Below are positions 3,337 through 18,425 of a stretch of DNA of 18,425 nt, piece by piece. The DNA is from a virus. Below the pieces are notes generated by a model. That model had not been told where the DNA came from and did not search any database. It saw only the letters and a program-made list of their open reading frames with translations. The stretch lies in the UHGV virus genome UHGV-2152132, one strand, 5' to 3'. Position 1 is the first letter of the stretch, and each line of letters begins with the position of its first letter. A program made the position numbers and the translations under genes.

Positions 3337-3618
3337 GCACGAAACCTCATGGATGATTCAATACAATGTAGTGGATAAAATTGATCAAATTTTAACCGAA
3401 TTCAACTGTTTTATCATTGATTAGAGCGAATTTGGTAGATCTTCGAGGTGTATGATAATCGAGAAGAGATGTGAATTATTTAGCTGATATGACCGACAGC
3501 TTTCGTTATGTGGACTCAATGTCCCCATTTGTAAATGGCTATGCTTAGTCCACATAGGTTAATGGTGTGATTATTAATTCTTTAACTAAATCAAGATAGT
3601 TAATCCATCATGGGAGAG
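3337..3618 (-). promoter_or_regulatory. AT-rich leader/promoter region of the recombinase-ParB-ParB operon, containing a nested palindrome
   Basis: 282-bp non-coding gap between the integrase stop and the recombinase start. Perfect 9-bp inverted repeat ATGTGGACT (3508-3516) / AGTCCACAT (3547-3555) enclosing CCATTT-GT-AAATGG (3524-3537). No promoter hexamers confidently assigned. Confidence 0.35.
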
Positions 3619-4848
3619 TTATGCGGCAATAACTTTGCATTTTTGAGACGAAACATAGTCACTCCACCATTGCATGAGAACCACCCGTTCAGTGAGATAC
3701 TCTGCACGATTGTAGGCTGCAATTATTTCATCTTTCTTCGAGTGGGCAAGGGCGGCTTCTAAGACATCAGTCCTAAACTTGCCAGACTCCTCAGCAGCCG
3801 TTCTAGCAATGGATCGCATACCGTGAGCTACAAGCTCACCTCCGAAACCCATACGGATTATGGCCGCATTAGCTGTTTGTTCATGCATGTGATTGAGTGG
3901 AGCTTTGATACTGGGGAACACCCACTCTCTATGCCCGCTGATGACTTTCATTAAATCCAAAACTCGCAAAGCTTCTTTGCTCAGTGGAACTTTGTGAGGC
4001 TTCTTCATTTTCATAAACTCCGCCGGGATGTTCCACATGCCAGTTTCAATATCAATATCTGACCATCTTGTGCGAACAGCTTCACCTGGGCGAACCCATG
4101 TGAGAAGTTGCCACTCAATCAGTAGCCTTGTTTCCAAACGGATAGAAGCATTGTTTAGAGCAACCAAGAAGCGAGGGAGTTCGGAAGGGGGTAATGCTGG
4201 CATATTCTGTTTTTTTGGCTTGCTGAACCGTTGCCCCAGGTTGTCTGCCGGGTTGAATTCTATGAGTTCTTCTGTTGCTGCATAGCGGAAAATTTCATTC
4301 AGGCGGGATATGATGCGGCGAAGTGTTTCAAGGACACCTCGTTTTTCTATGGGTTCTAAATGCTGTTTAAGCATTTTAGGGCGAATCTCCTTAATTGGGG
4401 TATCACCCAATGTGGAAAAGATATTTCTCTCTAGGCTTCGCCAGATGTCGTTAGCATGATCTTGGGAGATGCCTGACGTTTTGACTTTCTCATCAAGCCA
4501 CTTCTTGGCTACTGCTTGAAATGTATGTTCCGTGGCATCTTTCAGTGCATTGGCTTTTTGGTTGTTATGAACTTGGGGGTCTATACCATTTGTAAGCAAC
4601 GACAAGTATTCATCACGTAAAGCTCGTGCCTTCGCAAGTGTAAGGTGAGGATAGGTTCCTAAGCTCACCTTAGTTCGCTTTTTGGTCACAGGCACTGCAT
4701 ATCTGAAATACCAATTTTTCTTCCCTCCCTTCGCCAGGGGAGCGATTCGCAACAGCAAACCATCGCCGTCAAAAAGGTTAACCTCTTTTTCGGCAGGTTT
4801 GGTGCTTTTGATTTCAGTGTCAGTGAGCTTCTTAGCGATTTTGGCCAT
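3619..4848 (-). CDS. P4-type (IntA/SlpA-like) tyrosine integrase
   Basis: ORF track gives 3619..4929 (436 aa). The probable true start is the internal Met of MAKIAKKLTDTEIKSTKP (about 4848), the typical P4-family integrase N-terminus. C-terminal catalytic residues: AHGMRSIARTAAE (H-x-x-R) and IIAAYNRAEY (Tyr nucleophile). Lies next to the ssrA 3'-end repeat, same orientation as ssrA. Confidence 0.85.
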   Translation of the reverse strand: MAKIAKKLTDTEIKSTKPAEKEVNLFDGDGLLLRIAPLAKGGKKNWYFRYAVPVTKKRTKVSLGTYPHLTLAKARALRDEYLSLLTNGIDPQVHNNQKANALKDATEHTFQAVAKKWLDEKVKTSGISQDHANDIWRSLERNIFSTLGDTPIKEIRPKMLKQHLEPIEKRGVLETLRRIISRLNEIFRYAATEELIEFNPADNLGQRFSKPKKQNMPALPPSELPRFLVALNNASIRLETRLLIEWQLLTWVRPGEAVRTRWSDIDIETGMWNIPAEFMKMKKPHKVPLSKEALRVLDLMKVISGHREWVFPSIKAPLNHMHEQTANAAIIRMGFGGELVAHGMRSIARTAAEESGKFRTDVLEAALAHSKKDEIIAAYNRAEYLTERVVLMQWWSDYVSSQKCKVIAA

Positions 4849-4944
4849 GTTTGGGACCCTCGATTTTAGGACCCATCTTCGTGGGTCCCATTCAGGGTGC
4901 CATAACTCGTAGTTCTCAGCAATTCTCACTAGACTACAATAGAC

Positions 4945-4986
4945 GTAAAAAAGCCCGCAGAGCTTGTGCTGTGCGGGCTTAGTAGA
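4945..4986 (-). terminator. Rho-independent terminator (minus strand) just downstream of the partial ssrA 3' copy
   Basis: 9-bp stem AAGCCCGCA (4951-4959) / TGCGGGCTT (4972-4980), 12-nt loop. On the minus strand the hairpin is followed by a T-run (complement of AAAAAA at 4945-4950). Confidence 0.55.
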
Positions 4987-5010
4987 CTTTACTGAACTTC
5001 AGTACATCAA

Positions 5011-5059
5011 TATTTGGTGGAGCTGGCGGGAGTTGAACCCGCGTCCGAAATTCCTACAT
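5011..5059 (-). repeat. att core: 49-bp exact direct repeat of the ssrA 3' end (partial tmRNA copy)
   Basis: tatttggtggagctggcgggagttgaacccgcgtccgaaattcctacat is identical at 5011-5059 and 17362-17410. It contains the 3'-terminal 45 nt of tmRNA; flanking bases differ. Confidence 0.9.
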
Positions 5060-5144
5060 ACCATTTTTAGTATAGTAAAAATAGTAATTTATGTTTTAAA
5101 ACAAAGAATTAGTTTTTTGTTGTGTTTGCCCGTTTTATACATTT

Positions 5145-6404
5145 TTAACTCTCCGCCGCCAAATTGCCGCCATCAGGTAGATGCTCATGCTTCATCATTT
5201 GGTGGATAAGAACTTCTACTTTTCTGAAGGTCGTATTGTCATAGTACTCAACAAGTGATTCATCGAAATCCTCTATCCAACCTTTTGCTGGGCCATTTGT
5301 TTGATATCTGACGGCAGTTGGTGAGTGGAAGTTGGGAGTAGCCTTTAAAGTGCTAAACACAGCCCATGATACTGGGTTAGTCACTTTAAATATTCTCTTC
5401 AATTCAGGGCAGTACAACGTGTTTGGTACAGTTATTCGTTCCATTTTAGGGGGTAAGATTACATTAATACCGATGTCACTATCTTTTTGATTAAGTATTT
5501 TTGTCGAACGATACGATATTCCAGAAATATCCTTGTTGCTATCACTGCTAATCCATTGCATTAATAGGTTTGGAATAATGTATTCTTTGTGAAAATTTGC
5601 ATGTTCATGATCTTTTGTATAGTTACAGGCCAATACTAAAGGCCATGCGATTAGTTTTGAAACCTTATCATTAATCGGGTCTGAGAAATCACTATAATTT
5701 TCATTGTTGTATTCATCTATGCGTTCAGGCTCAAATGAAAATGAATGCTCACTTGGAGTGGAACGTAGTGCTGACGTTAGGTTGTATCCGAGGTCTAGTA
5801 TTCTAATTTGTGATGATTCGTCTTCAGTAATAAATGATGATATATACAGCTTATCGAAATCTGGTTTTCCCATCTCTTGCCAGCAAACAAATATTGATGT
5901 CCCAAGATATAGACATGGTAAACCTGAAACTGAGAAGCGTTGTGCGCTTACCAAATGTCTTTGACTAAAAGGAATGTGGAATAATTCTTCTCTATTTTTT
6001 AGTATGTTTTCACTTTTCCTAACCCGAAATAACGGAGTTCGTCTATTACAAAGTTTTGTTAACGGAACCGTCATTTGATAAATGTGGTTCTTCATTGCTG
6101 GTGAACCTATTATAGCTTGGTTGAAAGTATTATAGGCTTCTTTAATATTACCGTTAAGATAATGGGTTAACGTTTCAGATATTTTATTGGAGAATGTTGT
6201 GATTGAAATCGATCTTTTTTTTACCTCTTTTATTGTTTCGTTGTCTGGATAGTCCTTTCTTATTTTATCAATAGCTTCAAGATAACAATCAATCCTGTTT
6301 TTAAAGTTGGATACAATGTCGCCATTGGCCTTGAATGGGGGTTGAAGTAGTTCATATTGTAATAATGAATCTGATATTTCTTTCAGTTCTGAATATTTGC
6401 GCAT
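5145..6404 (-). CDS. RES-domain-like protein (putative NAD+-targeting toxin/abortive-infection-type effector); prophage cargo between att and int
   Basis: 419-aa ORF, AT-rich relative to neighbouring phage genes. Central segment LFRVRKSENILKNREELFHIPFSQRHLVSAQRFSVSGLPCLYLGTSIFVCWQEMGKP resembles the RES-domain core (R ... G.P.LY..S....E). Starts 10 nt after the integrase stop, weak RBS, so probably co-transcribed with int. Domain call by pattern only. Confidence 0.45.
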   Translation of the reverse strand: MRKYSELKEISDSLLQYELLQPPFKANGDIVSNFKNRIDCYLEAIDKIRKDYPDNETIKEVKKRSISITTFSNKISETLTHYLNGNIKEAYNTFNQAIIGSPAMKNHIYQMTVPLTKLCNRRTPLFRVRKSENILKNREELFHIPFSQRHLVSAQRFSVSGLPCLYLGTSIFVCWQEMGKPDFDKLYISSFITEDESSQIRILDLGYNLTSALRSTPSEHSFSFEPERIDEYNNENYSDFSDPINDKVSKLIAWPLVLACNYTKDHEHANFHKEYIIPNLLMQWISSDSNKDISGISYRSTKILNQKDSDIGINVILPPKMERITVPNTLYCPELKRIFKVTNPVSWAVFSTLKATPNFHSPTAVRYQTNGPAKGWIEDFDESLVEYYDNTTFRKVEVLIHQMMKHEHLPDGGNLAAES

Positions 6405-6414
6405 GAGAATTATT

Positions 6415-7431
6415 TCAATTAAGGTTGATTAATGGATTCTTAGTCACAGCATCTTCGAGATGTTCTGGAGAAAAATGTGCATATATCATTGTCATTTTAA
6501 TATCAGTGTGACCCAAGATTTCTTTAAGTACCAGTATGTTTCCGCCGTTCATCATAAAGTGACTGGCGAATGTATGACGCAGAACGTGGGTACATTGACC
6601 TTCCGGCAGCTCAATACCGGCCCTCTTTACTGCTCGTTCAAAAGCTTTTCTGCATGGAGTGAATAATTTTCCTCTCTTTTTGGGGAGTTCGTCATACAGA
6701 TCCTGTGATATTGGCACTGTTCTGTTTTTCTTGCCCTTAGTCTTGGTGTAAGTGATGCGGTATTTTGACAACTGGTGTCCCTGTAGGTTTTCGGCTTCAC
6801 TCCATCGCGCGCCGGTGGCCAGGCAGATTTTTGTAATCAAAAGCAGGCTGGGGCTTTGAGAATCAGCGCAGGCATCCAGCAGACGTTTAATTTCTTCCGG
6901 GGTCAGGAACGCCAGTTCACCCTCAGCAATTTTAAATGTTGGCAGCCCGGCAAGTGGGTTGGGGGCTGACCAATGGCCCAGCTTTTTCAGTGTACCAAAT
7001 ACCGATGATAGGTTACGCTGTTCAAGGTTTACCGTGCGGGGCTTAACGGGCGACATAAGCGTGCCATCTTCATTTCGCACTTCACCTTTTAGCCGTGCTT
7101 CGCGGTATTTCGTAAAGTCACCGGCTGTCAGTTCTGAGGCGATGGGATCGCCTAGACCATTACAGATAATTTTAAGTTTCGCCATGAGGCGCTTGGGGTC
7201 TGCGAGTGTCTGACCGTACAGGGAATACCAAAGCTCAATTAATTCTGATAGGCGTCGCCGATCATCCTTTTCTCCTAACCACGGTTTTTTGTTCACTTCT
7301 TCCATTGTGAAGCTTTCAAACGCAATAGCTTCGCCTTTGGTAGCAAATTGCTTACGCACGCGCTTGCCATTGCGTCCATTGGGATAGCACTCACACAACC
7401 ATTTTCCGTTCGGCTGTTTTCTGATGGTCAT
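6415..7431 (-). CDS. int: P2/186-family tyrosine integrase
   Basis: 338-aa ORF with catalytic motifs ATGARWSEA (Arg), HVLRHTFASH (His-x-x-Arg) and MIYAHF (Tyr). Position next to the CI-type repressor is typical of P2-like phages. Confidence 0.88.
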   Translation of the reverse strand: MTIRKQPNGKWLCECYPNGRNGKRVRKQFATKGEAIAFESFTMEEVNKKPWLGEKDDRRRLSELIELWYSLYGQTLADPKRLMAKLKIICNGLGDPIASELTAGDFTKYREARLKGEVRNEDGTLMSPVKPRTVNLEQRNLSSVFGTLKKLGHWSAPNPLAGLPTFKIAEGELAFLTPEEIKRLLDACADSQSPSLLLITKICLATGARWSEAENLQGHQLSKYRITYTKTKGKKNRTVPISQDLYDELPKKRGKLFTPCRKAFERAVKRAGIELPEGQCTHVLRHTFASHFMMNGGNILVLKEILGHTDIKMTMIYAHFSPEHLEDAVTKNPLINLN

Positions 7432-7432
7432 T

Positions 7433-8065
7433 TCAAAGGCTCTTAATGATTTTCAGTGCGCGGCCTACTACCTCAATGTCATCCAGGCCGCACTCAAACG
7501 ATGAATCATCCTGATGCACTACTAATTTGTTTCCCGGGAGTCGAGTCAATTTAACGATGCTTTTTATCCCGTCGATATCGACTAACCACATACCATTTAC
7601 TGGTGGTGTTTGGTTGCGATCTATTAAATAAGAATCACCAGAAGTAGTCACCAGCAGTAGGTTGCTTGAGTCTGAGGGGAGTATGCTGCTATCAATGATT
7701 GCTTTTCCAGCATCGACCAATAAACCACCGTTGAGAGTCGCCTTGTCAATTTCAGGAGATACTAGTTCAGAAAGAGGTACAACCTTGCTGGAGTTCACGG
7801 AATTGATATTTTTTTTAGGTTCAATGTTTGGACCTGGCTCCCCCTGTCCGGTGGTTAGCCACAGTAAAGAAACTCCTGTTTCCAAGGCGCACTGAATCAC
7901 CCACTCTGCAGGAAAACTATCTCTTAAGTATCTGTTTGCCATGGTGCTTTTTGATGCGCCTAAGTGATCGCAAAGTTGCTGTCTGGACTTGAAATCATAG
8001 GCTGCCATTAGTCTATGGATAGCCTCTCTTCCCCCTGTATTCTCTCCAACCTTTACCTGTATCAT
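7433..8065 (-). CDS. 186-type CI immunity repressor
   Basis: 210-aa ORF. N-terminal HTH region SRQQLCDHLGASKSTMANRYLRD and the segment QCALETGVSLLWLTTGQGEP, characteristic of phage 186/PSP3/Fels-2 CI. Divergent from the apl/cII-like genes across an operator-bearing gap. Confidence 0.75.
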   Translation of the reverse strand: MIQVKVGENTGGREAIHRLMAAYDFKSRQQLCDHLGASKSTMANRYLRDSFPAEWVIQCALETGVSLLWLTTGQGEPGPNIEPKKNINSVNSSKVVPLSELVSPEIDKATLNGGLLVDAGKAIIDSSILPSDSSNLLLVTTSGDSYLIDRNQTPPVNGMWLVDIDGIKSIVKLTRLPGNKLVVHQDDSSFECGLDDIEVVGRALKIIKSL

Positions 8066-8184
8066 TTTTTAATCCTGTTGACGTATCAAATATTGGATCG
8101 TAGTATCTCGATGTATCAAATATTGAATCAAGTAAAACGAGATAAAACGACGTAAACCAAACCTTAATCGGGAGATACTGCACT
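8066..8184. promoter_or_regulatory. Divergent switch region (pR/pL-like) with direct-repeat operator candidates
   Basis: 17-bp direct repeat GTATCAAATATTG(G/A)ATC at 8083-8099 and 8113-8129, 30 bp centre to centre. Rightward sigma70-like promoter TTGACG (8077-8082), 18-bp spacer, TAGTAT (8101-8106); the first repeat overlaps its spacer. Confidence 0.5.
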
Positions 8185-8427
8185 ATGAGCACTGATATTT
8201 CAATTCGTGTACCAAAAGAGATGGCTACGCCTGCAGAGTTCGCGGAATGGGAAGGTATCTCCCGCGGCTCCGTGTATCAAAAAATTCACCATGGTCAGCT
8301 TGCTAAATACATGGTCAAGAAAGAAAAAAACAAAGGCCGCGTAAGCCTGCGTTATTTAATGTACAAAACCGATCAGGTCCGTGAATCCCTCGGTCATTCC
8401 AACTTCCGCGTCATTGTTGGTAAGTAA
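8185..8427 (+). CDS. Apl/Cox-like small HTH protein (excisionase/transcriptional regulator)
   Basis: 80-aa ORF, first gene rightward from the switch region. HTH-like ATPAEFAEWEGISRGSVYQKIHHGQL. GGAG RBS about 10 nt upstream. Confidence 0.5.
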   Translation: MSTDISIRVPKEMATPAEFAEWEGISRGSVYQKIHHGQLAKYMVKKEKNKGRVSLRYLMYKTDQVRESLGHSNFRVIVGK

Positions 8428-8459
8428 GTTCAATTATGAGAACTTTCTAAGGGGGTAGC

Positions 8460-8855
8460 ATGTTTGATTATAAGATTTCCAAACACCCGCATTTTGATGA
8501 AGCCTGTAGAGCTTTTGCACTTCGTCACAATATGGCGAAGCTGGCAGAACGTGCAGGAATGAATGTCCAGACTCTGCGAAACAAACTCAACCCAGATCAA
8601 CCGCATCAGCTCAATGCGCCAGATATCTGGCTACTTACCGATCTGACGGAAGATTCAACGCTGGTAGACGGTTTTCTGGCACAGATTCACTGCCTGCCAT
8701 GTGTACCGATTAATGAGGTGGCAAAAGAGAAACTGCCACATTACGTCATGAGTGCAACCGCAGAGATCGGGCGTGTTGCTGCAGGTGCGGTATCCGTTCC
8801 GACGTTCCTCGTTGCCGCTTCTCCCAAACCAACGTTTAAGAAAATGCAGAGGTAA
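8460..8855 (+). CDS. CII-like phage regulatory protein (186 CII family), possibly C-terminally altered
   Basis: 131-aa ORF. N-terminal MFDYKISKHPHFDEACRAFALRHNMAKLAERAGMNVQTLRNKLNPDQ resembles 186-type CII. AAGGGGG RBS. Gene ends 38 bp before the invertase, where the normal early-region genes are missing. Confidence 0.55.
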   Translation: MFDYKISKHPHFDEACRAFALRHNMAKLAERAGMNVQTLRNKLNPDQPHQLNAPDIWLLTDLTEDSTLVDGFLAQIHCLPCVPINEVAKEKLPHYVMSATAEIGRVAAGAVSVPTFLVAASPKPTFKKMQR

Positions 8856-8899
8856 CAGCTAACTGGCATCATCTCCGGTTTTTATTCAGGGGGATGATC

Positions 8900-9466
8900 A
8901 TGCTTATTGGCTATGTACGCGTGTCAACAAATGACCAGAACACCGATTTGCAACGTAATGCACTGAACTGCGCGGGATGTGAGCAGATTTTTGAGGACAA
9001 AATCAGTGGCACTAAGTCCGACAGACCGGGGCTGAAAAAACTACTCAGGACACTATCGGCAGGAGACACGCTGGTTGTCTGGAAGCTGGACAGGTTGGGG
9101 CGCAGTATGCGGCATCTTGTTACGCTGATAGAAGAGTTGCGCCAGCGTGGTGTGAATTTCAGAAGCCTGACTGACAGTATTGATACCAGTACCCCAATGG
9201 GCCGTTTCTTTTTTCATGTCATGGGTGCCCTGGCTGAAATGGAACGCGAACTGATAGTTGAACGTACCAGGGCAGGGCTGGCTGCAGCTCGTGCCAAAGG
9301 CAGAGTAGGTGGACGCCGTCCTAAGTTGACCACCGAACAGTGGGCACAGATTGGGCGTTTACTCGAGGCCGGAGAATCAAGACAGCGTATTGCACTGATT
9401 TTTGATGTAGGCGTTTCTACCATTTATAGAAAATTTCCGGCAAATAAGATCAATGAATCCCCCTGA
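8900..9466 (+). CDS. Site-specific DNA invertase, Gin/Pin/Cin/Hin family (small serine recombinase)
   Basis: Starts MLIGYVRVSTNDQNTDLQRNAL...GDTLVVWKLDRLGRSM...SPMGRFFFHVMGALAEMERELI, the canonical invertase sequence, with C-terminal HTH. ORF track starts at 8894 (MIM...); ATG 8900 has better spacing from AGGGGG (8888-8893). Confidence 0.92.
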   Translation: MLIGYVRVSTNDQNTDLQRNALNCAGCEQIFEDKISGTKSDRPGLKKLLRTLSAGDTLVVWKLDRLGRSMRHLVTLIEELRQRGVNFRSLTDSIDTSTPMGRFFFHVMGALAEMERELIVERTRAGLAAARAKGRVGGRRPKLTTEQWAQIGRLLEAGESRQRIALIFDVGVSTIYRKFPANKINESP

Positions 9467-9514
9467 ATCAGCATTATGTTGATTATCCCTGCAAGCAGAC
9501 AAATACCGTTATTT

Positions 9515-9532
9515 TGTGTGAATAACGACACA
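9515..9532 (+). promoter_or_regulatory. P2-type late promoter activator site (TGT-N12-ACA dyad) upstream of FI
   Basis: TGT (9515-9517), 12 nt, ACA (9530-9532), inside a near-perfect dyad TTGTGTG...GACACAA, about 85 bp upstream of the FI start. P2-family late promoters carry this Ogr-dependent element near -55. Confidence 0.5.
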
Positions 9533-9608
9533 ACTGCGCTTAGCTGTTTGTCAGGCACAATCACTTCAACATAGGGCGAAGCCTAATCCAATCAGGAGGT
9601 TCGCCACT

Positions 9609-10781
9609 ATGGCTCAGGATTACCACCACGGGGTGCGCGTTGTTGAAGTCAACGAAGGCACCCGATCTATTACCACGGTGAGCACCGCCATCGTGGGTAT
9701 GGTCTGCACGGGCGATGATGCCGATGCAAAAATGTTTCCTCTTAATAAACCCGTGCTGATCACTGATGTGCTGACTGCCAGCGGTAAAGCGGGTGAGTCA
9801 GGTACTCTGGCCCGTTCGCTGGATGCCATCGCTGACCAGGCAAAACCCGTGACCATTGTTGTGCGTGTGCCGCAGGGTGAAACGGAAGACGAAACCACGA
9901 CCAATATCATCGGCGCAGTGACTGCTGAAGGTAAAAAAACAGGTATGAAAGCCCTGTTATCTGCCCAGTCACAGCTCGGCGTTAAACCGCGCATTCTCGG
10001 CGTGCCAGGCCACGACACCAAGGCGGTAGCTACTGAGTTGCTGAGCGTGGCGCAAAGCCTGCGTGGATTTGCTTACCTGTCAGCGTATGGCTGCAAGACA
10101 GTGCAGGAGGCGATCACTTACCGCGAAAACTTCAGCCAGCGCGAAGGGATGCTGATCTGGCCTGACTTTACTGGCTGGGACACGGTGCTGAATGCCGAAG
10201 CAACGGCATATGCCACCGCCCGTGCGCTTGGTCTGCGCGCCAAAATTGACGAGCAGACCGGATGGCACAAAAGCCTGTCCAACGTGGGCGTGAACGGTGT
10301 CACCGGAATTTCTGCAGATGTGTTCTGGGATCTGCAGGACCCGGCAACCGATGCAGGTCTGCTGAACCAGAACGACGTCACCACGCTTGTGCGTAAAGAC
10401 GGTTTCCGCTTCTGGGGTTCCCGCTGCCTGAGTGATGACCCGCTCTTTGCCTTCGAAAACTACACCCGCACGGCGCAGGTGCTGATGGACACGATGGCAG
10501 AAGCACACATGTGGGCGGTGGATAAACCGCTTAACCCGTCGCTGGCCCGCGACATTATCGAAGGTATCCGCGCCAAAATGCGCAGCCTGGTCAGTCAGGG
10601 CTATCTCATTGGTGGTGATTGCTGGCTGGATGAGTCGGTGAACGACAAAGACACGCTGAAAGCCGGAAAACTCACCATCGACTACGACTACACGCCAGTG
10701 CCGCCACTTGAAAACCTGATGCTGCGTCAGCGCATCACCGATCAGTACCTGGTGAATTTCGCCAGCCAGGTCAGCGCGTAA
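9609..10781 (+). CDS. FI: Contractile tail sheath protein (P2 gpFI homolog)
   Basis: 390-aa ORF starting [40 protein letters not shown], typical gpFI N-terminus. CAGGAGG RBS. Followed by FII-E-T-U-D in P2 order. Confidence 0.9.
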
Positions 10782-10790
10782 GGGGACAAC

Positions 10791-11306
10791 ATGGCTTTAC
10801 CACGCAAATTAAAACACCTGAACCTGTTTAACGACGGGAACAACTGGCAGGGGATCGTTGAATCGCTGACGCTGCCGAAATTTACCCGCAAATATGAGAA
10901 GTATCGCGGCGGCGGAATGCCGGGTGCGGTGGATGTGGATCTGGGGCTTGATGACAGTGCGCTGGACACAGAATTTTCCATTGGTGGTACTGAATTGCTG
11001 CTGTTTAAACAGATGGGTAAAGCCACGGTGGATGGCATCCAGCTGCGCTTTACCGGCTCTATTCAGCGTGACGATACCGGGGAAGTGCAGGCCGTGGAGC
11101 TTGTCGTGCGTGGACGTCACAAAGAAGTGGATTCCGGCGAGTGGAAGACGGGCGAAAGCAACACCACCAAAGTGACCAGTACCAACAGCTACGCGAAGCT
11201 GACCATCAATGGTGAGGTGCTCTATGAAGTGGACCTTATCAACATGGTGGAAATTGTGGACGGTGTGGACCTGATGGAAGCGCACCGCAACGCCCTCGGC
11301 CTCTGA
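10791..11306 (+). CDS. FII: Tail tube protein (P2 gpFII homolog)
   Basis: 171-aa ORF, MALPRKLKHLNLFNDGNNWQG...RFTGSIQRDDTGE, immediately after FI. Confidence 0.9.
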   Translation: MALPRKLKHLNLFNDGNNWQGIVESLTLPKFTRKYEKYRGGGMPGAVDVDLGLDDSALDTEFSIGGTELLLFKQMGKATVDGIQLRFTGSIQRDDTGEVQAVELVVRGRHKEVDSGEWKTGESNTTKVTSTNSYAKLTINGEVLYEVDLINMVEIVDGVDLMEAHRNALGL

Positions 11307-11360
11307 TATATCTGAACGGCGCGGGATACCGCGCCAGAACCCAATTGACAGGACAGCAAA

Positions 11361-11663
11361 ATGAGCGATAAGCAGACTGAAAAGACCATTCAACTGGATA
11401 CCCCCATCAAGCGCGGTAAAACAGAAATCACCGAAATTGTGCTGCGTAAACCGCAGTCCGGTGCGCTGCGCGGTACACGCCTGCAGGCCATTATGGATAT
11501 GGATGTAAACGCGATGATGACCGTGATCCCCCGCATCTCCAGTCCGGCACTGACTGCACAGGAAATTGCAGAGATGGACCCGGCAGATCTCACTGCCATG
11601 TCGGTTGAGGTTGTCACTTTTTTGTTGAAGAAGTCGGTGCTTGCCGGTTTACCGACAGCCTGA
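11361..11663 (+). CDS. E: Tail assembly chaperone gpE (unshifted product)
   Basis: 100-aa ORF between FII and T. Contains the slippery heptamer T TTT TTG near its 3' end. Confidence 0.8.
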   Translation: MSDKQTEKTIQLDTPIKRGKTEITEIVLRKPQSGALRGTRLQAIMDMDVNAMMTVIPRISSPALTAQEIAEMDPADLTAMSVEVVTFLLKKSVLAGLPTA

Positions 11664-11797
11664 CGGTTGACGATCTGGTGGCAGATATCGCCACCATTTT
11701 TCACTGGCCGCCATCCGTTACTGACGTTATGCCGCTGACCGAAGTGCTGGAATGGCGGTATAAAGCGATTCAGAGAAGCGGGGCCAACGATGAGTGA
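11361..11797 (+). CDS. Tail assembly chaperone E+E' (predicted -1 programmed frameshift product)
   Basis: Slippery site TTTTTTG at about 11618-11624. The -1 frame is open from there to TGA at 11795-11797, giving an extension ...DDLVADIATIFHWPPSVTDVMPLTEVLEWRYKAIQRSGANDE that overlaps the T start by 8 nt. Confidence 0.6.
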
Positions 11798-14700
11798 TAA
11801 CAACCTGCGTCTGCAGGTCATTCTTAATGCGGTTGACAAGCTCACCCGCCCATTTCGATCTGCGCAGGCCAGTTCAAGAGAACTGGCTGCTGCTGTCAAA
11901 AAATCCCGCGATGCAATAAAGCAGCTTGATCAGGCCGGGAGCAGTCTGGACAGCTTCCGAAAGCTGCAGGCAGAAAATCAGAAATTAGGCGACAGGCTGA
12001 ACTATGCCCGCCAGCGTGCAAATTTGCTCAGTCAGGAACTGGGAGCGATGGGGCCGCCTTCGCAACGTCAGGTTGTTGCTCTGGGCCGTCAACGGCTGGC
12101 TGTTCAGCGCCTGGAAGAACGCCAGAAAAAGCTGCAGCAGCAGACGGCGCTTGTGCGTGCTGAACTGTACCGGGCGGGAATTTCTGCGAAAGACGATGCG
12201 GGAGCAACTGCCCGTTTAGCCCGTGAAACATCACGTTATAACCAGGAACTTTCGAAACAGGAGGCGCGGCTGAAGCGACTGGGGGAAGCTCAGCGCAGGA
12301 TGAATGCAGCGCGTGCCAGTTATGCCCGTTCGCTGGAGGTGCGTGATCGTATTGCAGGTGCCGGAGCCACCACCACGGCTGCAGGGCTGGCAATGGGTGC
12401 GCCAGTGATGGCGGCAGTAAAAAGCTATACCAGCATGGAAGATGCCATGAAAGGTGTGGCAAAGCAGGTCAATGGTCTGCGTGACGATAATGGCAACCGC
12501 ACTGCACGTTTTTATGAAATGCAGGATGCCATCAAGGCTGCCAGCGAACAGTTGCCGATGGAAAACGGTGCGGTGGACTTCGCTGCACTGGTTGAAGGTG
12601 GTGCGCGCATGAACGTCGCAAACCCTGACGACAGCTGGGAAGATCAGAAACGTGACCTGCTGGCCTTCGCCAGTACGGCAGCAAAGGCGGCAACAGCCTT
12701 TGAGCTGCCAGCGGATGAACTGTCAGAAAGTCTGGGGAAAATCGCCCAGCTCTACAAAATCCCCACCCGCAATATTGAACAGCTCGGTGATGCGCTGAAC
12801 TATCTGGATGATAACGCCATGTCGAAAGGGGCAGACATCATTGATGTGATGCAACGTCTGGGCGGTGTGGCTGACCGTCTGGATTATCGTAAAGCGGCGG
12901 CGCTGGGTTCCACCTTCCTGACACTGGGCGCTGCGCCAGAGGTTGCAGCCAGTGCAGCAAACGCGATGGTGCGTGAATTGTCCATTGCCACCATGCAAAG
13001 CAAGAGTTTCTTTGAAGGGATGAATCTGCTGAAACTCAATCCTGAAGTGATTGAAAAGCAGATGACGAAGGATGCGATGGGAACCATCCAGCGCGTGCTG
13101 GAGAAGGTAAACGCGCTGCCGCAGGACAAGCGCCTGTCTGCCATGACTATGTTGTTTGGTAAAGAGTTTGGCGATGACGCGGCGAAACTGGCAAACAACC
13201 TGCCGGAACTGCAGCGTCAGTTAAAACTGACAGCGGGCAATGATGCGCTTGGCTCCATGCAAAAAGAATCCGACATTAACAAGGATTCACTTTCTGCGCA
13301 GTGGTTGCTGGTCAAAACCGGAGCGCAGAACACCTTCAGCAGCCTGGGCGAAACGCTGCGCCAGCCGCTGATGGATATTCTGTACACGGTGAAAAGCGTC
13401 ACGGGGGCGTTGCGTCGCTGGGTGGAAGCTAACCCGGAACTGACAGGCACACTGATGAAAGCATCGGCTGTTGTGGCTGCGGTTACCGTCGGCCTCGGCA
13501 CCTTAGCGGTGGCGCTGGCTGCAGTGCTGGGGCCGCTGGCAGTGATCCGTCTGGGATTCTCTGTGTTGGGTATCAAAACGTTATCTTCCGTTACGGCAGC
13601 AGTAACTCGAACCAGCAGCGCGTTGTCCTGGCTGGCTGGCGCACCACTGGCACTGCTGCGACGCGGGCTTGCTTCATCGGGCAACGCCGCAGGTTTACTT
13701 ACTGCGCCGTTGTCGTCTTTGCGCCGCACGGCATCACTGACGGGAAATGTCCTGAAAACTGTAGCAGGTGCGCCGGTTGCACTTTTGCGGTCTGGATTAT
13801 CCGGTTTACGTGCTGTTGCTGTGATGTTTATGAATCCTCTGGCGGTACTGCGCGGTGGACTGGCCGCCGCAGGCACGGTGCTGCGAGTACTGGCATCTGG
13901 TCCACTGGCGATGCTGCGCGTTGCCCTGTATGCCATATCTGGTCTGTTAGGTGCTCTGCTCAGTCCGATAGGTCTTGTGGTTACTGCACTGGCGGGCGTG
14001 GCGCTGGTTGTCTGGAAATACTGGCAACCCATCACCGCATTTCTCGGTGGCGTGGTGGAAGGATTCAAAGCGGCGGCAGGTCCCATCAGTGCAGCGTTCG
14101 AACCGCTTAAGCCCGTGTTCCAGTGGATTGGCGACAAAGTGCAGGCGCTGTGGGGCTGGTTTACTGATCTGCTGACGCCCGTTAAGTCGACCTCTGCCGA
14201 ACTGCAGAGCGCAGCGGCAATGGGGCGGCGATTCGGGGAGGCACTGGCGGAAGGGCTGAATATGGTCATGCATCCGCTGGACTCCCTGAAATCCGGCGTT
14301 TCCTGGTTGCTGGAGAAGCTCGGCATTGTCAGTAAAGAGGCCGCAAAGGCAAAACTGCCGGAAAGCGTGACGCGTCAGCAACCTGCGACGGTGAATGCAG
14401 ACGGTAAAGTGATGATGCCATCGGGTGGTTTTCCATCATGGGGATATGGCTTTGCGGGGATGTATGACAGCGGCGGGTATATCCCGCGCGGGCAGTTTGG
14501 CATCGTCGGTGAAAACGGGCCGGAAATTGTTAACGGCCCGGCAAATGTGACCAGCCGGAGAAATACAGCTGCACTGGCTGCCGTTGTTGCCGGAATGATG
14601 GGCGTTGCTGCCGCGCCAGCAGAGCTTCCACCGTTGCACCCCTTGGCACTTCCCGCGAAAGGTGGAGAAGCAATTGTGAGTCGCGCAGCCACTGTGCCAC

Positions 14701-14867
14701 TCGTTCAACGGATTGAGGCACCGACGCAGATCATCATTCAGACGCAGCCAGGACAAAGTGCGCAGGATATTGCGCGGGAGGTGGCACGCCAGCTTGATGA
14801 ACGTGAACGCAGGCTGAAGGCAAAAGCCAGGAGTAACTACAGCGATCAGGGGGGATACGACGCATGA
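11790..14867 (+). CDS. T: Tail tape measure protein (P2 gpT homolog)
   Basis: 1025-aa ORF in the expected position. N-terminal coiled-coil-like region, central Ala/Gly/Leu-rich hydrophobic region with tandem PLAxLRxGL-type repeats, C-terminal Gly-rich region. Confidence 0.9.
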   Translation: MSDNNLRLQVILNAVDKLTRPFRSAQASSRELAAAVKKSRDAIKQLDQAGSSLDSFRKLQAENQKLGDRLNYARQRANLLSQELGAMGPPSQRQVVALGRQRLAVQRLEERQKKLQQQTALVRAELYRAGISAKDDAGATARLARETSRYNQELSKQEARLKRLGEAQRRMNAARASYARSLEVRDRIAGAGATTTAAGLAMGAPVMAAVKSYTSMEDAMKGVAKQVNGLRDDNGNRTARFYEMQDAIKAASEQLPMENGAVDFAALVEGGARMNVANPDDSWEDQKRDLLAFASTAAKAATAFELPADELSESLGKIAQLYKIPTRNIEQLGDALNYLDDNAMSKGADIIDVMQRLGGVADRLDYRKAAALGSTFLTLGAAPEVAASAANAMVRELSIATMQSKSFFEGMNLLKLNPEVIEKQMTKDAMGTIQRVLEKVNALPQDKRLSAMTMLFGKEFGDDAAKLANNLPELQRQLKLTAGNDALGSMQKESDINKDSLSAQWLLVKTGAQNTFSSLGETLRQPLMDILYTVKSVTGALRRWVEANPELTGTLMKASAVVAAVTVGLGTLAVALAAVLGPLAVIRLGFSVLGIKTLSSVTAAVTRTSSALSWLAGAPLALLRRGLASSGNAAGLLTAPLSSLRRTASLTGNVLKTVAGAPVALLRSGLSGLRAVAVMFMNPLAVLRGGLAAAGTVLRVLASGPLAMLRVALYAISGLLGALLSPIGLVVTALAGVALVVWKYWQPITAFLGGVVEGFKAAAGPISAAFEPLKPVFQWIGDKVQALWGWFTDLLTPVKSTSAELQSAAAMGRRFGEALAEGLNMVMHPLDSLKSGVSWLLEKLGIVSKEAAKAKLPESVTRQQPATVNADGKVMMPSGGFPSWGYGFAGMYDSGGYIPRGQFGIVGENGPEIVNGPANVTSRRNTAALAAVVAGMMGVAAAPAELPPLHPLALPAKGGEAIVSRAATVPLVQRIEAPTQIIIQTQPGQSAQDIAREVARQLDERERRLKAKARSNYSDQGGYDA

Positions 14868-15349
14868 TGATGGTGCTGGGATTGTACGTGTTTATGCTGC
14901 GCACCGTTCCGTATCAGGAACTGCAGTATCAACGCAGCTGGCGACATGCGGCAAACAGTCGGGTAAACCGACGTCCGTCCACGCAGTTTCTGGGACCGGA
15001 AAACGACATGCTGACGCTTTCCGGTGTTCTTATGCCGGAAATAACAGGCGGCAGGCTGTCGTTGCTGGCACTGGAGCAGATGGCAGAACAGGGGAAAGCA
15101 TGGCCCCTGATTGAAGGCAGCGGCACGATTTACGGCATGTATGTGATTGAGGGACTGAATCAGACTAAAACGGAGTTTTTCCGCGACGGTATGCCGCGCC
15201 GGATTGAGTTCACCCTGTCGCTCAAACGAGTGGATGAATCCCTGTCCGATATGTTCGGTGATCTCAGTGCGCAACTGAATAATCTGCAGGACACGGCAAC
15301 GTCTGCCTTAAGCGATATCAGTAAAACGGTGGGAGGGCTGCTGTCGTGA
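14864..15349 (+). CDS. U: Tail protein gpU homolog
   Basis: 161-aa ORF, MMMVLGLYVFMLRTVPYQELQYQRSWRH..., ATGA-type overlap with the T stop. Confidence 0.88.
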   Translation: MMMVLGLYVFMLRTVPYQELQYQRSWRHAANSRVNRRPSTQFLGPENDMLTLSGVLMPEITGGRLSLLALEQMAEQGKAWPLIEGSGTIYGMYVIEGLNQTKTEFFRDGMPRRIEFTLSLKRVDESLSDMFGDLSAQLNNLQDTATSALSDISKTVGGLLS

Positions 15350-16446
15350 ATTTCAGCTCTGAACTGCTTAACAAAGGCAACAAAACTCCCGCATTCAGCA
15401 TCAGTATTGAGGGCAGGGATATCACCACTGTGCTGGATAACCGCCTGATGAGTTTGACGCTGACGGATAACCGGGGCTTTGAAGCGGACCAGCTTGATCT
15501 GGAGCTGGATGACGCTGACGGAAAAATCGTGCTGCCGCGCCGTGGTGCGGTTATTACGCTGGCGCTGGGCTGGAAGGGGCAGCCGCTTTTCCCGAAAGGG
15601 GCATTCACAGTGGACGAGATTGAACACACTGGCGCACCGGACCGCCTGACTATCCGGGCGCGAAGTGCTGATTTTCGGGAAACGCTGAATACCCGCCGTG
15701 AAAAATCGTGGCATAAGACCACCGTCGGGGAAGTGGTGAAGGAAATAGCCGCGCGGCACAAGCTGAAGATGGCCCTGGGTAAAGACCTGTCGGATAAGCC
15801 CGTGGAGCATATAGACCAGACTAATGAGAGTGACGGCAGTTTTCTGATGCGGCTGGCGCGACAGTACGGTGCCATCGCGTCGGTGAAAAATGGCAATCTG
15901 TTATTCATCCGGCAGGGGCAGGGCAAAAGCGCCACTGGTAAACCTCTGCCAGTGATCACTATCACACGCAAGGACGGCGACAGTCACCGATTTACCCTGG
16001 CAGATCGCGGAGCCTACACGGGCGTAATTGCCAGCTGGTTGCATACCCGCGAACCTGCGAAGAAAGAAAGCACCACGGTGAAGCGTAAGCGCAGAACTAA
16101 GAAGCAGAAGAAAGAGCCGGAAGCGAAGCAGGGCGATTACCTGGTGGGTACGGATGAAAACGTGCTGGTACTTAATCGCACTTATGCCAACCGGAGCAAC
16201 GCTGAACGGGCAGCGAAAATGCAGTGGGAACGCCTGCAACGCGGCGTTGCGTCATTCTCGCTACAACTGGCGGAAGGGCGGGCAGATCTTTACACGGAAA
16301 TGCCAGTGAAAGTTAGTGGCTTTAAACAACCGATAGATGATGCGGAATGGACCATTACGACTCTGACTCATACCGTCAGCCCGGATAATGGTTTTACGAC
16401 CAGTATTGAACTCGAAGTGAAGATTGATGATCTTGAAATGGAATAA
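15346..16446 (+). CDS. D: Tail protein gpD homolog (late gene D)
   Basis: 366-aa ORF following U with a 4-nt overlap, matching P2 gene order. Confidence 0.88.
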   Translation: MNFSSELLNKGNKTPAFSISIEGRDITTVLDNRLMSLTLTDNRGFEADQLDLELDDADGKIVLPRRGAVITLALGWKGQPLFPKGAFTVDEIEHTGAPDRLTIRARSADFRETLNTRREKSWHKTTVGEVVKEIAARHKLKMALGKDLSDKPVEHIDQTNESDGSFLMRLARQYGAIASVKNGNLLFIRQGQGKSATGKPLPVITITRKDGDSHRFTLADRGAYTGVIASWLHTREPAKKESTTVKRKRRTKKQKKEPEAKQGDYLVGTDENVLVLNRTYANRSNAERAAKMQWERLQRGVASFSLQLAEGRADLYTEMPVKVSGFKQPIDDAEWTITTLTHTVSPDNGFTTSIELEVKIDDLEME

Positions 16447-16514
16447 AGTGTTCTCAATATTGATATTTTGTGTATCATTACAATGATTCTGATAGCAAAG
16501 GTAGGGATCTGGAT

Positions 16515-16733
16515 ATGATGAATTGTCCAAAGTGTGGTCATGCGGCACACACAAGGAGCAGTTTTCAAGTAACTGAAAGCACCAAAGAGCGTTACTGCCA
16601 GTGCCAAAATATTAACTGCGGGAGCACTTTTGTTACCCATGAAACAGTGGTCCGGTTTATTGTGACACCCGCACTGATTGCTACTGCTCCTCCACATCCA
16701 TTGCCAGGTGGTCAGGGGCATATGAATTTTTGA
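16515..16733 (+). CDS. ogr: Ogr/Delta-family zinc-finger late transcription activator
   Basis: MNCPKCGHAAHTRSSFQVTESTKERYCQCQNINCGSTFVTHETVVRFIVTP, with the four-Cys C-x2-C ... C-x4-C arrangement of P2 Ogr. ORF track starts at 16470; the ATG at 16515 (MMNCPKC) fits Ogr length. Confidence 0.85.
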   Translation: MMNCPKCGHAAHTRSSFQVTESTKERYCQCQNINCGSTFVTHETVVRFIVTPALIATAPPHPLPGGQGHMNF

Positions 16734-16741
16734 GAAAGAGA

Positions 16742-16763
16742 ACCTGCTACGGCAGGTTTTTAT
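16742..16763 (+). terminator. Rho-independent terminator after ogr
   Basis: Stem ACCTGC (16742-16747) / GCAGGT (16752-16757), 4-nt loop, followed by TTTTTAT on the plus strand. Confidence 0.6.
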
Positions 16764-17242
16764 TCATCTGGGATCTCACCCGTTTCAAGAAAATGTATAA
16801 AGCCAGGCTCATCTATGATGATTGTGCCTTTCATCCTGGCTGCCGATACTTTTGATGGGCCTGCATTGTAACCGCAACAGAGCATCTGAAGGCTTTGGGT
16901 TACAGAGGTTCTTACCGTTAATCCTTGTTCATTCGCCTTATCAACCAATCTTTCTTTATCTGCTTTCTTAAATCCGGTGAAACACACATCGAATGTATTT
17001 TTTTTCGGACCAGACTGCTTAGTGAGATGTGAGTAGTTTTCGGGGAGGAATGACGCGCATTCCTGAATGGCTTGTTCTGGTGAATCGTACTGTTTAAGAA
17101 TGCGGTCTTTTCGGAAGGTTTTTATTCGATCGGTGTTCTTACAAATGCCCTGTATATGATTTTCGCTATAACTGATGCTCTGTATTGAGTGAACTCCGAT
17201 ACGACCATTTGCATTGATGTAAACAAAGTGAAGTTCTTCCAT
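16760..17242 (-). CDS. Small WYL-like / BRCT-like two-domain protein; prophage cargo between ogr and ssrA
   Basis: 160-aa ORF, AGAGG RBS 6 nt upstream. N-terminal HFVYINANGRIGVHSIQSISYSENHIQGICKNTDRIKTFRKDRI resembles a WYL domain. C-terminal FDVCFTGFKKADKERLVDKANEQGLTVRTSVTQSLQMLCCGYNAGPSKVSAARMKGTIIIDEPGFIHFLE resembles a BRCT domain. Pattern-based only. Confidence 0.45.
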   Translation of the reverse strand: MEELHFVYINANGRIGVHSIQSISYSENHIQGICKNTDRIKTFRKDRILKQYDSPEQAIQECASFLPENYSHLTKQSGPKKNTFDVCFTGFKKADKERLVDKANEQGLTVRTSVTQSLQMLCCGYNAGPSKVSAARMKGTIIIDEPGFIHFLETGEIPDE

Positions 17243-17320
17243 GTGAAACCTCTTTGCATGATTTCAAGAGGGCGACAGGCAAGATAGACGCAAAAGTCTG
17301 TCGCCATTTTGCCGCCACTA

Positions 17321-17360
17321 CCAAAGAAAAAGGGGCTACGCTTTCACGTAACCCCTTGTT
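17321..17360 (-). terminator. ssrA rho-independent terminator (prophage-supplied side of att)
   Basis: On the minus strand, just 3' of the tmRNA end: hairpin GGGGTTACG / CGTAGCCCC with 6-nt loop (plus-strand 17332-17355, one mismatch), followed by TTTTTCTTT. Confidence 0.65.
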
Positions 17361-17361
17361 T

Positions 17362-17410
17362 TATTTGGTGGAGCTGGCGGGAGTTGAACCCGCGTCCGAA
17401 ATTCCTACAT
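17362..17410 (-). repeat. att core at the intact ssrA 3' end (partner of 5011-5059)
   Basis: 49 bp identical to 5011-5059; covers the last 45 nt of ssrA plus 4 nt downstream. Confidence 0.9.
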
Positions 17411-17728
17411 CCTCGGTACTACATGCTTAGTCAGTCTTTATATTCGCTTGCCAGCTGCGGACGGACACGCCACTAACAAACTAGCCTGATTAAGTTTTAA
17501 CGCTTCAACCCCAGGCAGGGCTTCCACGCGATCTCTTTTGGGTTTGACCTCTCTTGATCCCCGTCCTAAGAGCGGAGGCTAGGGAGAGAGGGCTCTAAGC
17601 AGGTTATTAAGCTGCTAAAGCGTAGTTTTCGTCGTTTGCGACTATTTTTTGCGGCTTTTTACGAGGCCAACCGCCCCTCGGCATGCACCTTGGGTTTCGC
17701 AAATCCCGTCGAATCCAGAATCAGCCCC
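17366..17728 (-). ncRNA. ssrA: tmRNA (transfer-messenger RNA, SsrA)
   Basis: Reverse complement reads GGGGCTGATTCTGGATTCGACGGGATTTGCGAAACCC...GGTTCAACTCCCGCCAGCTCCACCA, 363 nt, matching enterobacterial tmRNA end to end, including the tRNA-like 3' end with CCA. Confidence 0.95.
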
Positions 17729-17742
17729 AATGTGTAAAGGTA

Positions 17743-17748
17743 AGTATA
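17743..17748 (-). promoter_or_regulatory. Candidate -10 hexamer of the ssrA promoter
   Basis: TATACT on the minus strand, about 14 nt upstream of the mature tmRNA 5' end. No convincing -35 identified. Confidence 0.35.
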
Positions 17749-17942
17749 CCAGATTTATGAGCGCCATGACCAGCCTCAATGGCGTTATCGTTAAAGATTT
17801 AGCACCCATGTAGCCTGATTTTTATTCGATTAAGCAATGGGATGGCAACATTTGTGTCGGATGTGATAGCCAATAAGATGTTCATTCGCGCCGCCGGAGA
17901 GGGAGGCGCGGTGAGGAACTGGTCAATAATTGGAGTGCAGGT

Positions 17943-18425
17943 TTAACGGTGGGCGTTTTTCATGATACGTGCTTTATCCACCTGCCATTCGCGCTCTTTG
18001 ATATCTGAACGTTTATCGTGCTGTTTCTTACCTTTGGCGACGCCGATTTTCACTTTGCACCAGGCATTTTTCCAGTACAGGGAGAGCGCCACTACGGTAT
18101 AGCCTTCTCGATTGACGCGACCGTACAATGAGTCCAGTTCGCGCTGGTTGAGAAGTAACTTGCGGGTACGGGTAGGATCGCACACCACATGCGTGGAGGC
18201 CACGGCCATTGGCGTGATGTTAGCGCCAAACAGAAATGCCTCTCCGTCACGCAGAAGGACGTAGCTGTCGCTGATATTGGCTTTTCCTGCGCGCAGGGAT
18301 TTAACTTCCCAGCCTTGCAGGGCAAGTCCCGCTTCGAACTCTTCTTCGATAAAGTATTCGTGACGGGCGCGCTTGTTAAGCGCGATGGTCGCTGAACCAG
18401 GTTTATGTGCTTTTTTCTTCGTCAT
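17943..18425 (-). CDS. smpB: SsrA-binding protein SmpB
   Basis: 160-aa [67 protein letters not shown]..., recognised as enterobacterial SmpB; start codon at the window edge. Upstream of and co-oriented with ssrA. Confidence 0.95.

Follow-up and report, generated by a model that had tools for sequence, protein, structure and literature searches.

The region next to attP in P2-like phages has already been published, in a 2026 survey (PMC13586616), as a minor P2 (defence) hotspot that is distinct from tin/old and Z/fun. Among described phages, Cartapus (NC_070909; Peduoviridae, Elveevirus), which is prophage 4 of the adherent-invasive Escherichia coli (AIEC) strain LF82, has the gene order D, ogr, a gene for a protein of 160 amino acids (aa), attP, a RES-family gene, int and CI. 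In the present study we analysed the UHGV virus genome UHGV-2152132, a stretch of 18,425 nucleotides referred to here in its entirety as the window, which contains a 12.3-kb element with this same order, and we concentrated on the two genes that face its attP, one encoding a 419-aa RES-like protein and the other a 160-aa WYL-like/BRCT protein. Like Cartapus, the element is integrated at ssrA, and the two have the same attP arms, terminator and core; the Cartapus 160-aa protein is 98.8% identical to that of the window, and its RES protein is another allele, of 401 aa and with 37.5% identity to ours. Unlike Cartapus, which is complete and produces virions, the element of the window is a deletion remnant of 12.3 kb.

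A preliminary description of the window had proposed that these two genes might be a functionally linked module at a site other than Z/fun or tin/old. The site is indeed neither of these, though it is already a published hotspot, and the interval given for that hotspot in the published accounts is the same as the variable region of the window. With regard to the module we came to a different view: the two are likely to be independent lysogen-associated accessory genes that occupy separate slots and owe their nearness solely to the attP between them, and not a functional pair.

Arrangement of the two genes around attP

Two identical copies of a 49-bp direct repeat, at 5011-5059 and 17362-17410, delimit the element and correspond to the 3′ end of ssrA. 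The element is a decayed ssrA-integrated P2/186-like prophage, kin of the Felsduovirus and Elveevirus phages. The features that bear on its attP, with positions in the window, are as follows (tmRNA, transfer-messenger RNA).

5011-5059, unstranded: distal att core copy, the displaced ssrA 3′ end, an exact 49-bp repeat of 17362-17410
5060-5172, unstranded: P′ arm of attP, kept in the attP of Cartapus and MLG42
5145-6404, minus strand: gene for the RES-domain protein, 419 aa, cargo of the int-att slot, with 85 bp between its end and the distal att copy
6415-7431, minus strand: tyrosine integrase (int), Pfam Int_N and Phage_integrase, 100% identical to the integrase of E. coli PEC1011
7433-8065, minus strand: CI repressor, Pfam Phage_CI_repr and Phage_CI_C
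16470-16733, plus strand: ogr/Delta late activator, Pfam Ogr_Delta, convergent with the 160-aa gene
16741-16758: hairpin between ogr and the 160-aa gene
16760-17242, minus strand: gene for the 160-aa WYL-like + BRCT protein, in the ogr-att slot
17297-17317, unstranded: P-arm motif GCCGCCAnnnTGCCGCCA, putative Int arm site, a direct repeat conserved in the attP of Cartapus and MLG42
17330-17357, minus strand: phage-supplied intrinsic terminator replacing the ssrA terminator, 12-pair stem and T-run
17362-17410, unstranded: proximal att core copy, the 3′ end of functional ssrA
17366-17728, minus strand: intact tmRNA gene, its 3′ end overlapping the right att copy

The open reading frame (ORF) coordinates and the 49-bp repeat agree with the preliminary description in that the RES-like gene abuts one att copy and the 160-aa gene the other, both on the minus strand. 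We reconstructed attP by joining 17200-17410 to 5060-5200 and aligned the product to phage attP regions. In this joined form the two genes point the same way with 253 bp between them (85 bp, then the core of 49 bp, then 119 bp), and the reconstructed attP is collinear with that of the Cartapus genome record and with that of the circular Yersinia phage MLG42, the core, the terminator and both arms with the GCCGCCAnnnTGCCGCCA repeat being common to all three. The collinearity, together with the presence of both homologues at this place in Cartapus, bears out the proposal that the genes are adjacent and co-oriented across attP in the excised circle. Likewise, the hairpin lies where it had been placed and is supplied by the phage, its 12-pair stem and T-run being conserved in the Cartapus and MLG42 attP. 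The statement that only core and terminator separate the genes was correct in that both are present, but incomplete, as the 253-bp interval also contains the attP arms with the GCCGCCAnnnTGCCGCCA motif. The copies of this motif at 17297-17317 and 5152-5172, one on each arm, are probably Int arm-type binding sites. The copy at 5152-5172 doubles as the coding sequence for the C-terminal residues of the RES protein (...GGNLAAES).

The P′ arm, which lies between the RES gene and the core, is present even in MLG42, which has no RES gene. As this conserved arm separates the RES gene from the core, the RES gene is phage-internal cargo, and an origin of the gene from the host or by imprecise excision was ruled out on the same ground. 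CI, int and the 419-aa gene are consecutive on the minus strand, with gaps of only 1 nt (CI/int) and 10 nt (int/419-aa gene), a spacing from which the three would form one operon. The phage arm and terminator were found adjoining ssrA in 770 of 5426 complete E. coli genomes, and in integrated prophages the 419-aa and 160-aa gene types are about 12-32 kb apart. Since the two slots, int-att (slot 1) and ogr-att (slot 2), flank attP, integration puts one accessory gene at each end of the prophage.

Occupancy of the two slots

Related loci carry variable single-gene cargo between a conserved int and att, as in an int-att hotspot. Megablast of the complete E. coli genomes found the RES allele of the window in 1 of 5426 (PEC1011, 99.9%) and that of Cartapus in 11; the BRCT gene was present in 171. 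The near-absence of RES beside the BRCT gene that was first suggested by the counts of 1 and 11 genomes proved misleading, because the RES alleles are too divergent for a DNA search, and the presence of RES was judged by protein-level checks of fetched loci.

All four combinations of presence and absence of the RES and BRCT genes occur. In PEC1011, the RES, int and CI sequences are 99.8-100% identical to those of the window, the ogr-att slot is occupied by an unrelated 237-aa gene and ogr is 62% identical. The converse is found in E. coli 2011C-3911, where the right arm is 99.87% identical to the window and the int-att slot holds an unrelated, non-RES gene of 343 aa. Salmonella phage RE2010 has RES behind int and an empty ogr-att slot, and both MLG42 and E. 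coli strain EC23HZZ201 have the BRCT gene and an empty int-att slot. Among phage records, the RES family is represented in Cartapus, RE2010, SopEPhi, SE479_1PHIH2 and SPbeta, and the BRCT family in Cartapus, 500465-1, CP019275, MLG42 and P2-like phages of Vibrio, Mannheimia, Burkholderia and Pseudomonas; Cartapus is the only record with both.

Slot 1 was surveyed in 80 IMG/VR loci with an int at least 90% identical, 64 of which could be determined: 23 carried RES, 15 were empty and 26 carried other cargo (343-aa, 513-aa and other genes), the content of the remaining 16 not being determinable. No other family of occupants is thus as frequent in the int-att slot as the long RES-fold proteins, whose alleles in the 23 loci are 37-72% identical to that of the window. 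In related loci, slot 2 was empty (~123 bp) or contained the BRCT gene, a small ORF or a gene of either 237 or 257 aa. The alternative proteins, listed below by locus, are uncharacterised, and each is a candidate encoded by a single gene in a phage hotspot.

L259:5456-6487: 343-aa alternative slot-1 cargo, no Pfam or PADLOC match
L260:2040-2708: 222-aa alternative slot-1 cargo, marginal PADLOC Cas2_II match (E 0.0073)
L024:7014-8555: 513-aa alternative slot-1 cargo
L008:13400-14113: 237-aa alternative slot-2 cargo, no Pfam or PADLOC match
L218: 257-aa alternative slot-2 cargo

We also observed that many IMG/VR loci (in the set L177-L256) with a D protein 97-99% identical to that of the window show no ssrA att core after ogr within the available sequence, many of the contigs ending soon after this gene. 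If real, this may mean that the tail/ogr arm pairs with other integration modules and that the ogr-att junction is a mosaic breakpoint.

To compare the two slots on the same molecule, IMG/VR contigs readable at both ends were paired by contig name, by hand. On these contigs the BRCT gene was accompanied by RES in five cases, by other cargo in three and by an empty slot 1 in two, with one further non-RES locus in which the slot could not be delimited. In an evenly spaced sample of BRCT-bearing complete E. coli genomes, slot 1 held RES in five (three alleles), the 343-aa gene in two, the 222-aa gene in two and nothing in one; in the other four the int end was absent from the expected 28-37 kb, these prophages probably being shorter or remnants. 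RES was not significantly enriched among BRCT-bearing contigs relative to background (Fisher p = 0.47), nor when these were pooled with the E. coli sample (p = 0.28). In addition, the BRCT gene is 98-100% conserved, and the RES genes with which it is found are 37-70% identical alleles or are replaced by unrelated genes. These data show differing distributions for the two families around attP, the very outcome of a comparative-genomics check that the preliminary description had named as contrary to its proposal. The occurrence of all four combinations, with near-identical copies of one gene facing different partners, means that the idea of a functional module fails.

The 419-aa RES-fold protein

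The 419-aa protein consists of an N-terminal helical bundle (~120 aa), a RES/ART-fold core and a C-terminal extension. Its three-dimensional fold is that of RES/ART proteins, and it was by the fold search alone that RES was recognized: Pfam RES (PF08808) scored 14.1 bits against a gathering cut-off of 23.2, this profile matched weakly in 17 of 42 homologues, and the protein had no Pfam, NCBIfam or PADLOC match at normal thresholds. A sequence search of the PDB with the family profile gave nothing useful. The protein is assigned to PHROG 7835 and has at least 285 homologues, the best 120 of which come from Enterobacterales and metagenomes and are all unannotated; a more distant relative, with 28% identity, is YopC of Bacillus phage SPbeta. 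Among the candidate counterparts of the MbcT active-site residues, R156, S158, Y166 and E177 do not vary in 42 homologues, and S300 hardly does.

The gene directly upstream of the RES gene is int, and no Xre/COG5642 antitoxin gene is found there. RES-family orphans on Pectobacterium and Serratia chromosomes have no int, Xre antitoxin, same-orientation helix-turn-helix (HTH) or BRCT neighbour. The 419-aa protein is therefore a long, divergent RES-fold protein without an accompanying antitoxin gene, and as PADLOC 2.0 gave no match for it, it does not belong to a recognized defence system. The family as a whole is large, highly diverse and absent from defence catalogues. As the commonest family in the int-att slot that these catalogues do not list, it is a plausible single-gene candidate for an abortive-infection factor that targets NAD+.

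The 160-aa WYL-like/BRCT protein

The domain guesses of the preliminary description, RES-like for one protein and WYL/BRCT for the other, were upheld for RES and for BRCT, with WYL only a tentative assignment. Both the fold and the sequence profiles identify a BRCT domain in the 160-aa protein: Pfam BRCT matches 41 of 48 homologues, the profile of the family matches the BRCT domains of LigA and RFC1, and a TGF motif is invariant. Pfam WYL (PF13280), on the other hand, matches 5 of the 48 homologues (best E = 1.5e-5); the predicted model has five β-strands in residues 3-52, and a comparison of the N-terminal WYL-like profile with the PDB retrieved no WYL chain. We detected no catalytic or HTH domain in the protein. 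The family has been called ‘DNA ligase’ (PHROG 2561 and RefSeq phage records) and ‘putative exonuclease’ (Cartapus) only through its BRCT domain, and in view of the missing catalytic domain these labels are misnomers. PADLOC matched the protein only to the C-terminus of the candidate PDC-S48, and a literature search combining BRCT, WYL and prophage returned nothing relevant.

In more distant P2-like prophages the gene has a different setting. The gene order is CI-BRCT-int in Xenorhabdus, HTH-Flk_N-BRCT-int in Serratia, CI-BRCT-gp03-int in Vibrio PV94, CI-BRCT in Mannheimia PHL101 and XRE-hypothetical-BRCT in Burkholderia, and there is no RES gene in the examined stretch of the Xenorhabdus, Serratia, Vibrio and Mannheimia prophages. 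In the ssrA-type enterobacterial phages the BRCT gene has the same orientation downstream of CI/int, with attP and the terminator interposed. Its position between CI and int in other P2-like lineages indicates a semi-conserved lysogeny-module gene rather than sporadic cargo.

Expression values are available for the Cartapus homologue, LF82_783. In the published RNA-seq account of the LF82 lysogen (PMC9928086) it is described as a moron transcribed 15-fold over the prophage background, with ~107 fragments per kilobase per million reads compared with 33 for CI and 12 for int, i.e. ~9 times int, and it is the highest-transcribed prophage gene among the LF82/Cartapus values compared. In the prophage the BRCT gene comes directly after ssrA and the phage terminator, and we hypothesize that it may be transcribed by read-through from ssrA.

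Interpretation and alternative explanations

Given this arrangement and these surveys, attP is flanked by two separately variable single-gene slots. Slot 1, between int and attP, takes one or another single gene added behind the lysogenic operon of CI and int. RES is one of several such genes, and the occupant here is a rare RES allele. As RES starts 10 nt after int, it would be transcribed with CI in the lysogen and, by this spacing, would be the last gene of the CI-int transcript. Its product may be a self-contained NAD+-consuming or ADP-ribosylating effector that is inactive until triggered, as fold and context suggest, and the fold together with the hotspot position points to abortive infection or superinfection defence as the most likely role. 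Slot 2, between ogr and attP, would hold in the BRCT gene a semi-conserved member of the lysogeny module, whose WYL-like/BRCT product, judged by fold and context, may bind DNA ends or single-stranded DNA (ssDNA) and act in lysogeny control or exclusion.

Several observations weigh against this interpretation. The RES gene is not in the LF82 expression table (PMC9928086), and a promoter scan from the terminator to the start codon of the BRCT gene revealed no σ70-like site. PADLOC finds no defence signature, while the proposed defence role rests on fold and hotspot position. About half of the sampled BRCT-bearing prophages carry a RES-family gene, very small remnants (L043, L053 and L055) keep both genes, and at these sample sizes, taken without phylogenetic correction, a loose association between RES and BRCT could still be present.

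The last of these points are also what can be said for the module originally proposed, in which the RES-like protein and WYL-BRCT, as effector plus regulator or antitoxin, would have been assembled across attP: the two co-occur in 5 of 10-11 contigs and in 5/10 sampled E. coli prophages, the mini-remnants retain both, they lie adjacent and co-oriented in the Cartapus genome, and canonical RES toxins require a partner protein. We nevertheless consider such a module very unlikely. The four combinations exist, a 99.9%-identical RES is found without BRCT in PEC1011 and RE2010 likewise has RES alone, the RES orphans are partnerless, and BRCT is part of the CI operon in phages where RES was not seen. 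The BRCT gene is conserved far more strictly (98-100%) than its supposed partners, which are RES alleles of 37-70% identity or unrelated genes; a 12-pair terminator stands between the two genes, no enrichment was detected, and the LF82 values differ ~9-fold between BRCT and int. The same near-identity of the BRCT gene, opposite which at least four RES alleles and no fewer than three unrelated single genes are found, would suit a common DNA-end/ssDNA sensor that serves whichever effector occupies slot 1 (RES alleles or the 343-aa, 222-aa or 513-aa protein) and is split from it by attP, as would the fact that every slot-1 gene is single and co-oriented behind int. BRCT is, however, also found with an empty slot 1, slot-1 cargo is also found without BRCT, and in Xenorhabdus, Serratia and Mannheimia BRCT is embedded in the CI operon, all of which makes this arrangement highly improbable. 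An extended form, in which WYL-BRCT would be the DNA-end/ssDNA sensor of the lysogeny module, integration would cut its gene off from Pc and place it downstream of the very strongly transcribed ssrA, thereby rewiring its expression, and the protein might pair with an interchangeable effector behind int on the other side of attP, is no less speculative and equally hard to credit.

The remaining alternative concerns RES alone, which might be a toxin for prophage addiction or stabilization, or a lysogenic-conversion factor acting on host physiology, with its N-terminal helical domain or a distant factor as the antidote. The RES fold matches the toxins of toxin-antitoxin systems, the gene lies at the extreme end of the prophage and is kept in decayed remnants (the window, L043, L053 and L055), and the absence of a known PADLOC defence signature would be in keeping with such a role. 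In none of the contexts examined, however, is there an adjacent antitoxin gene, and defence hotspots typically show the extreme allelic diversity seen in RES and its replacement, at one slot, by unrelated single genes; the slot is listed as a minor hotspot of this kind in the 2026 survey (PMC13586616). Addiction or conversion is accordingly an unlikely explanation, though one with somewhat more in its favour than a partnership of the two genes. The reading of two independent accessory genes in separate slots accounts for their independent assortment, the intervening terminator, the RES orphans and the BRCT genes seen in CI operons without RES, and we retain it in place of the linked pair.

Internal deletion and other features of the window

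The rest of the element shows how it has decayed. Window 3652-8794 corresponds to the left arm of the full-length PEC1011 prophage, and 8814-18425 is 99.87% identical over 9.6 kb to the right arm of the 2011C-3911 prophage, including the tail genes. Between cII and the invertase region ~21 kb are missing, with the replication, capsid, lysis and baseplate genes, and at the deletion joint (~8795-8813) ~19 bases match neither of these parental arms. As a result of this deletion, which leaves a remnant of 12.3 kb, the element would be unable to replicate as a phage after excision and circularization. The further features of the element and its right flank are as follows.

8185-8427, plus strand: Cox/Apl-like excisionase-repressor, PHROG 6912 and 575
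8460-8855, plus strand: cII, truncated by the internal deletion, Pfam CP76 at profile positions 1-111 of 146 only
8894-9466, plus strand: Hin/Cin-type DNA invertase, Pfam Resolvase and HTH_7, with a cix-like site upstream
9609-16446, plus strand: kept tail genes, FI sheath and gpD (Pfam) and the ORFs between, for which the names FII, E, T and U are putative
17943-18425, minus strand: smpB, beyond the tmRNA gene at the right end of the window

Upstream of the invertase gene (8894-9466) is the sequence TTCTCCCAAACCAACGTTTAAGAAAA at 8821-8846, which we take to be a cix-like inversion site. An origin of the internal deletion through the invertase acting at this site was considered; as the joint is ~8-25 bp outside the site and has ~19 unmatched bases, such an origin is unproven.

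To the left of the displaced att copy, a second island (window 1-4985) is integrated in tandem at ssrA. PEC1011 also has a P4-type integrase directly left of its att copy, the rest of its left flank being different. The features of the island are listed below.

1-897 and 894-1790, minus strand: two ParB-like ORFs
1780-3336, minus strand: large serine recombinase, 518 aa
3619-4929, minus strand: P4/CP4-57-type integrase
near 4951-4965: older displaced terminator, on the minus-strand side after the distal att core

Comparison with known systems

When compared with the Xre-RES toxins (MbcT, NatT, ParT, Pseudomonas putida Res and VPA0770), the RES protein of the window is approximately twice as long, has the additional N-terminal bundle and C-terminal extension, and lacks the upstream Xre/COG5642 antitoxin gene. 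The 160-aa protein resembles LigA and RFC1 through BRCT profile matches and, tentatively, the WYL ligand-sensing domains through the Pfam matches of some homologues; since both a catalytic and an HTH domain are missing, it cannot be classed as a ligase or as a WYL transcription factor. At the level of the whole element, the ssrA-integrating Salmonella phages RE2010, SopEPhi and Fels-2 (Felsduovirus) share its att core and its terminator, their int and CI are related to those of the window, and RE2010 and SopEPhi also have a RES-family gene behind int. All three differ from the window in having no 160-aa BRCT gene, ogr in RE2010 being followed directly by att.

Taken together, the locus is a tidy example of a known phenomenon, attP-adjacent accessory cargo in P2-like phages, and does not represent a new system. 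The excerpted published accounts (2024-2026) treat the region as one hotspot, and two separately assorting slots, or RES or BRCT cargo, are not mentioned in those excerpts. What the present study adds is that the published hotspot consists of two single-gene slots that lie on opposite sides of attP and assort independently, and that one of these contains a mis-annotated 160-aa gene, WYL-like/BRCT in its product, which P2-like phages of several genera have kept in their lysogeny module and which is highly expressed in a lysogen.

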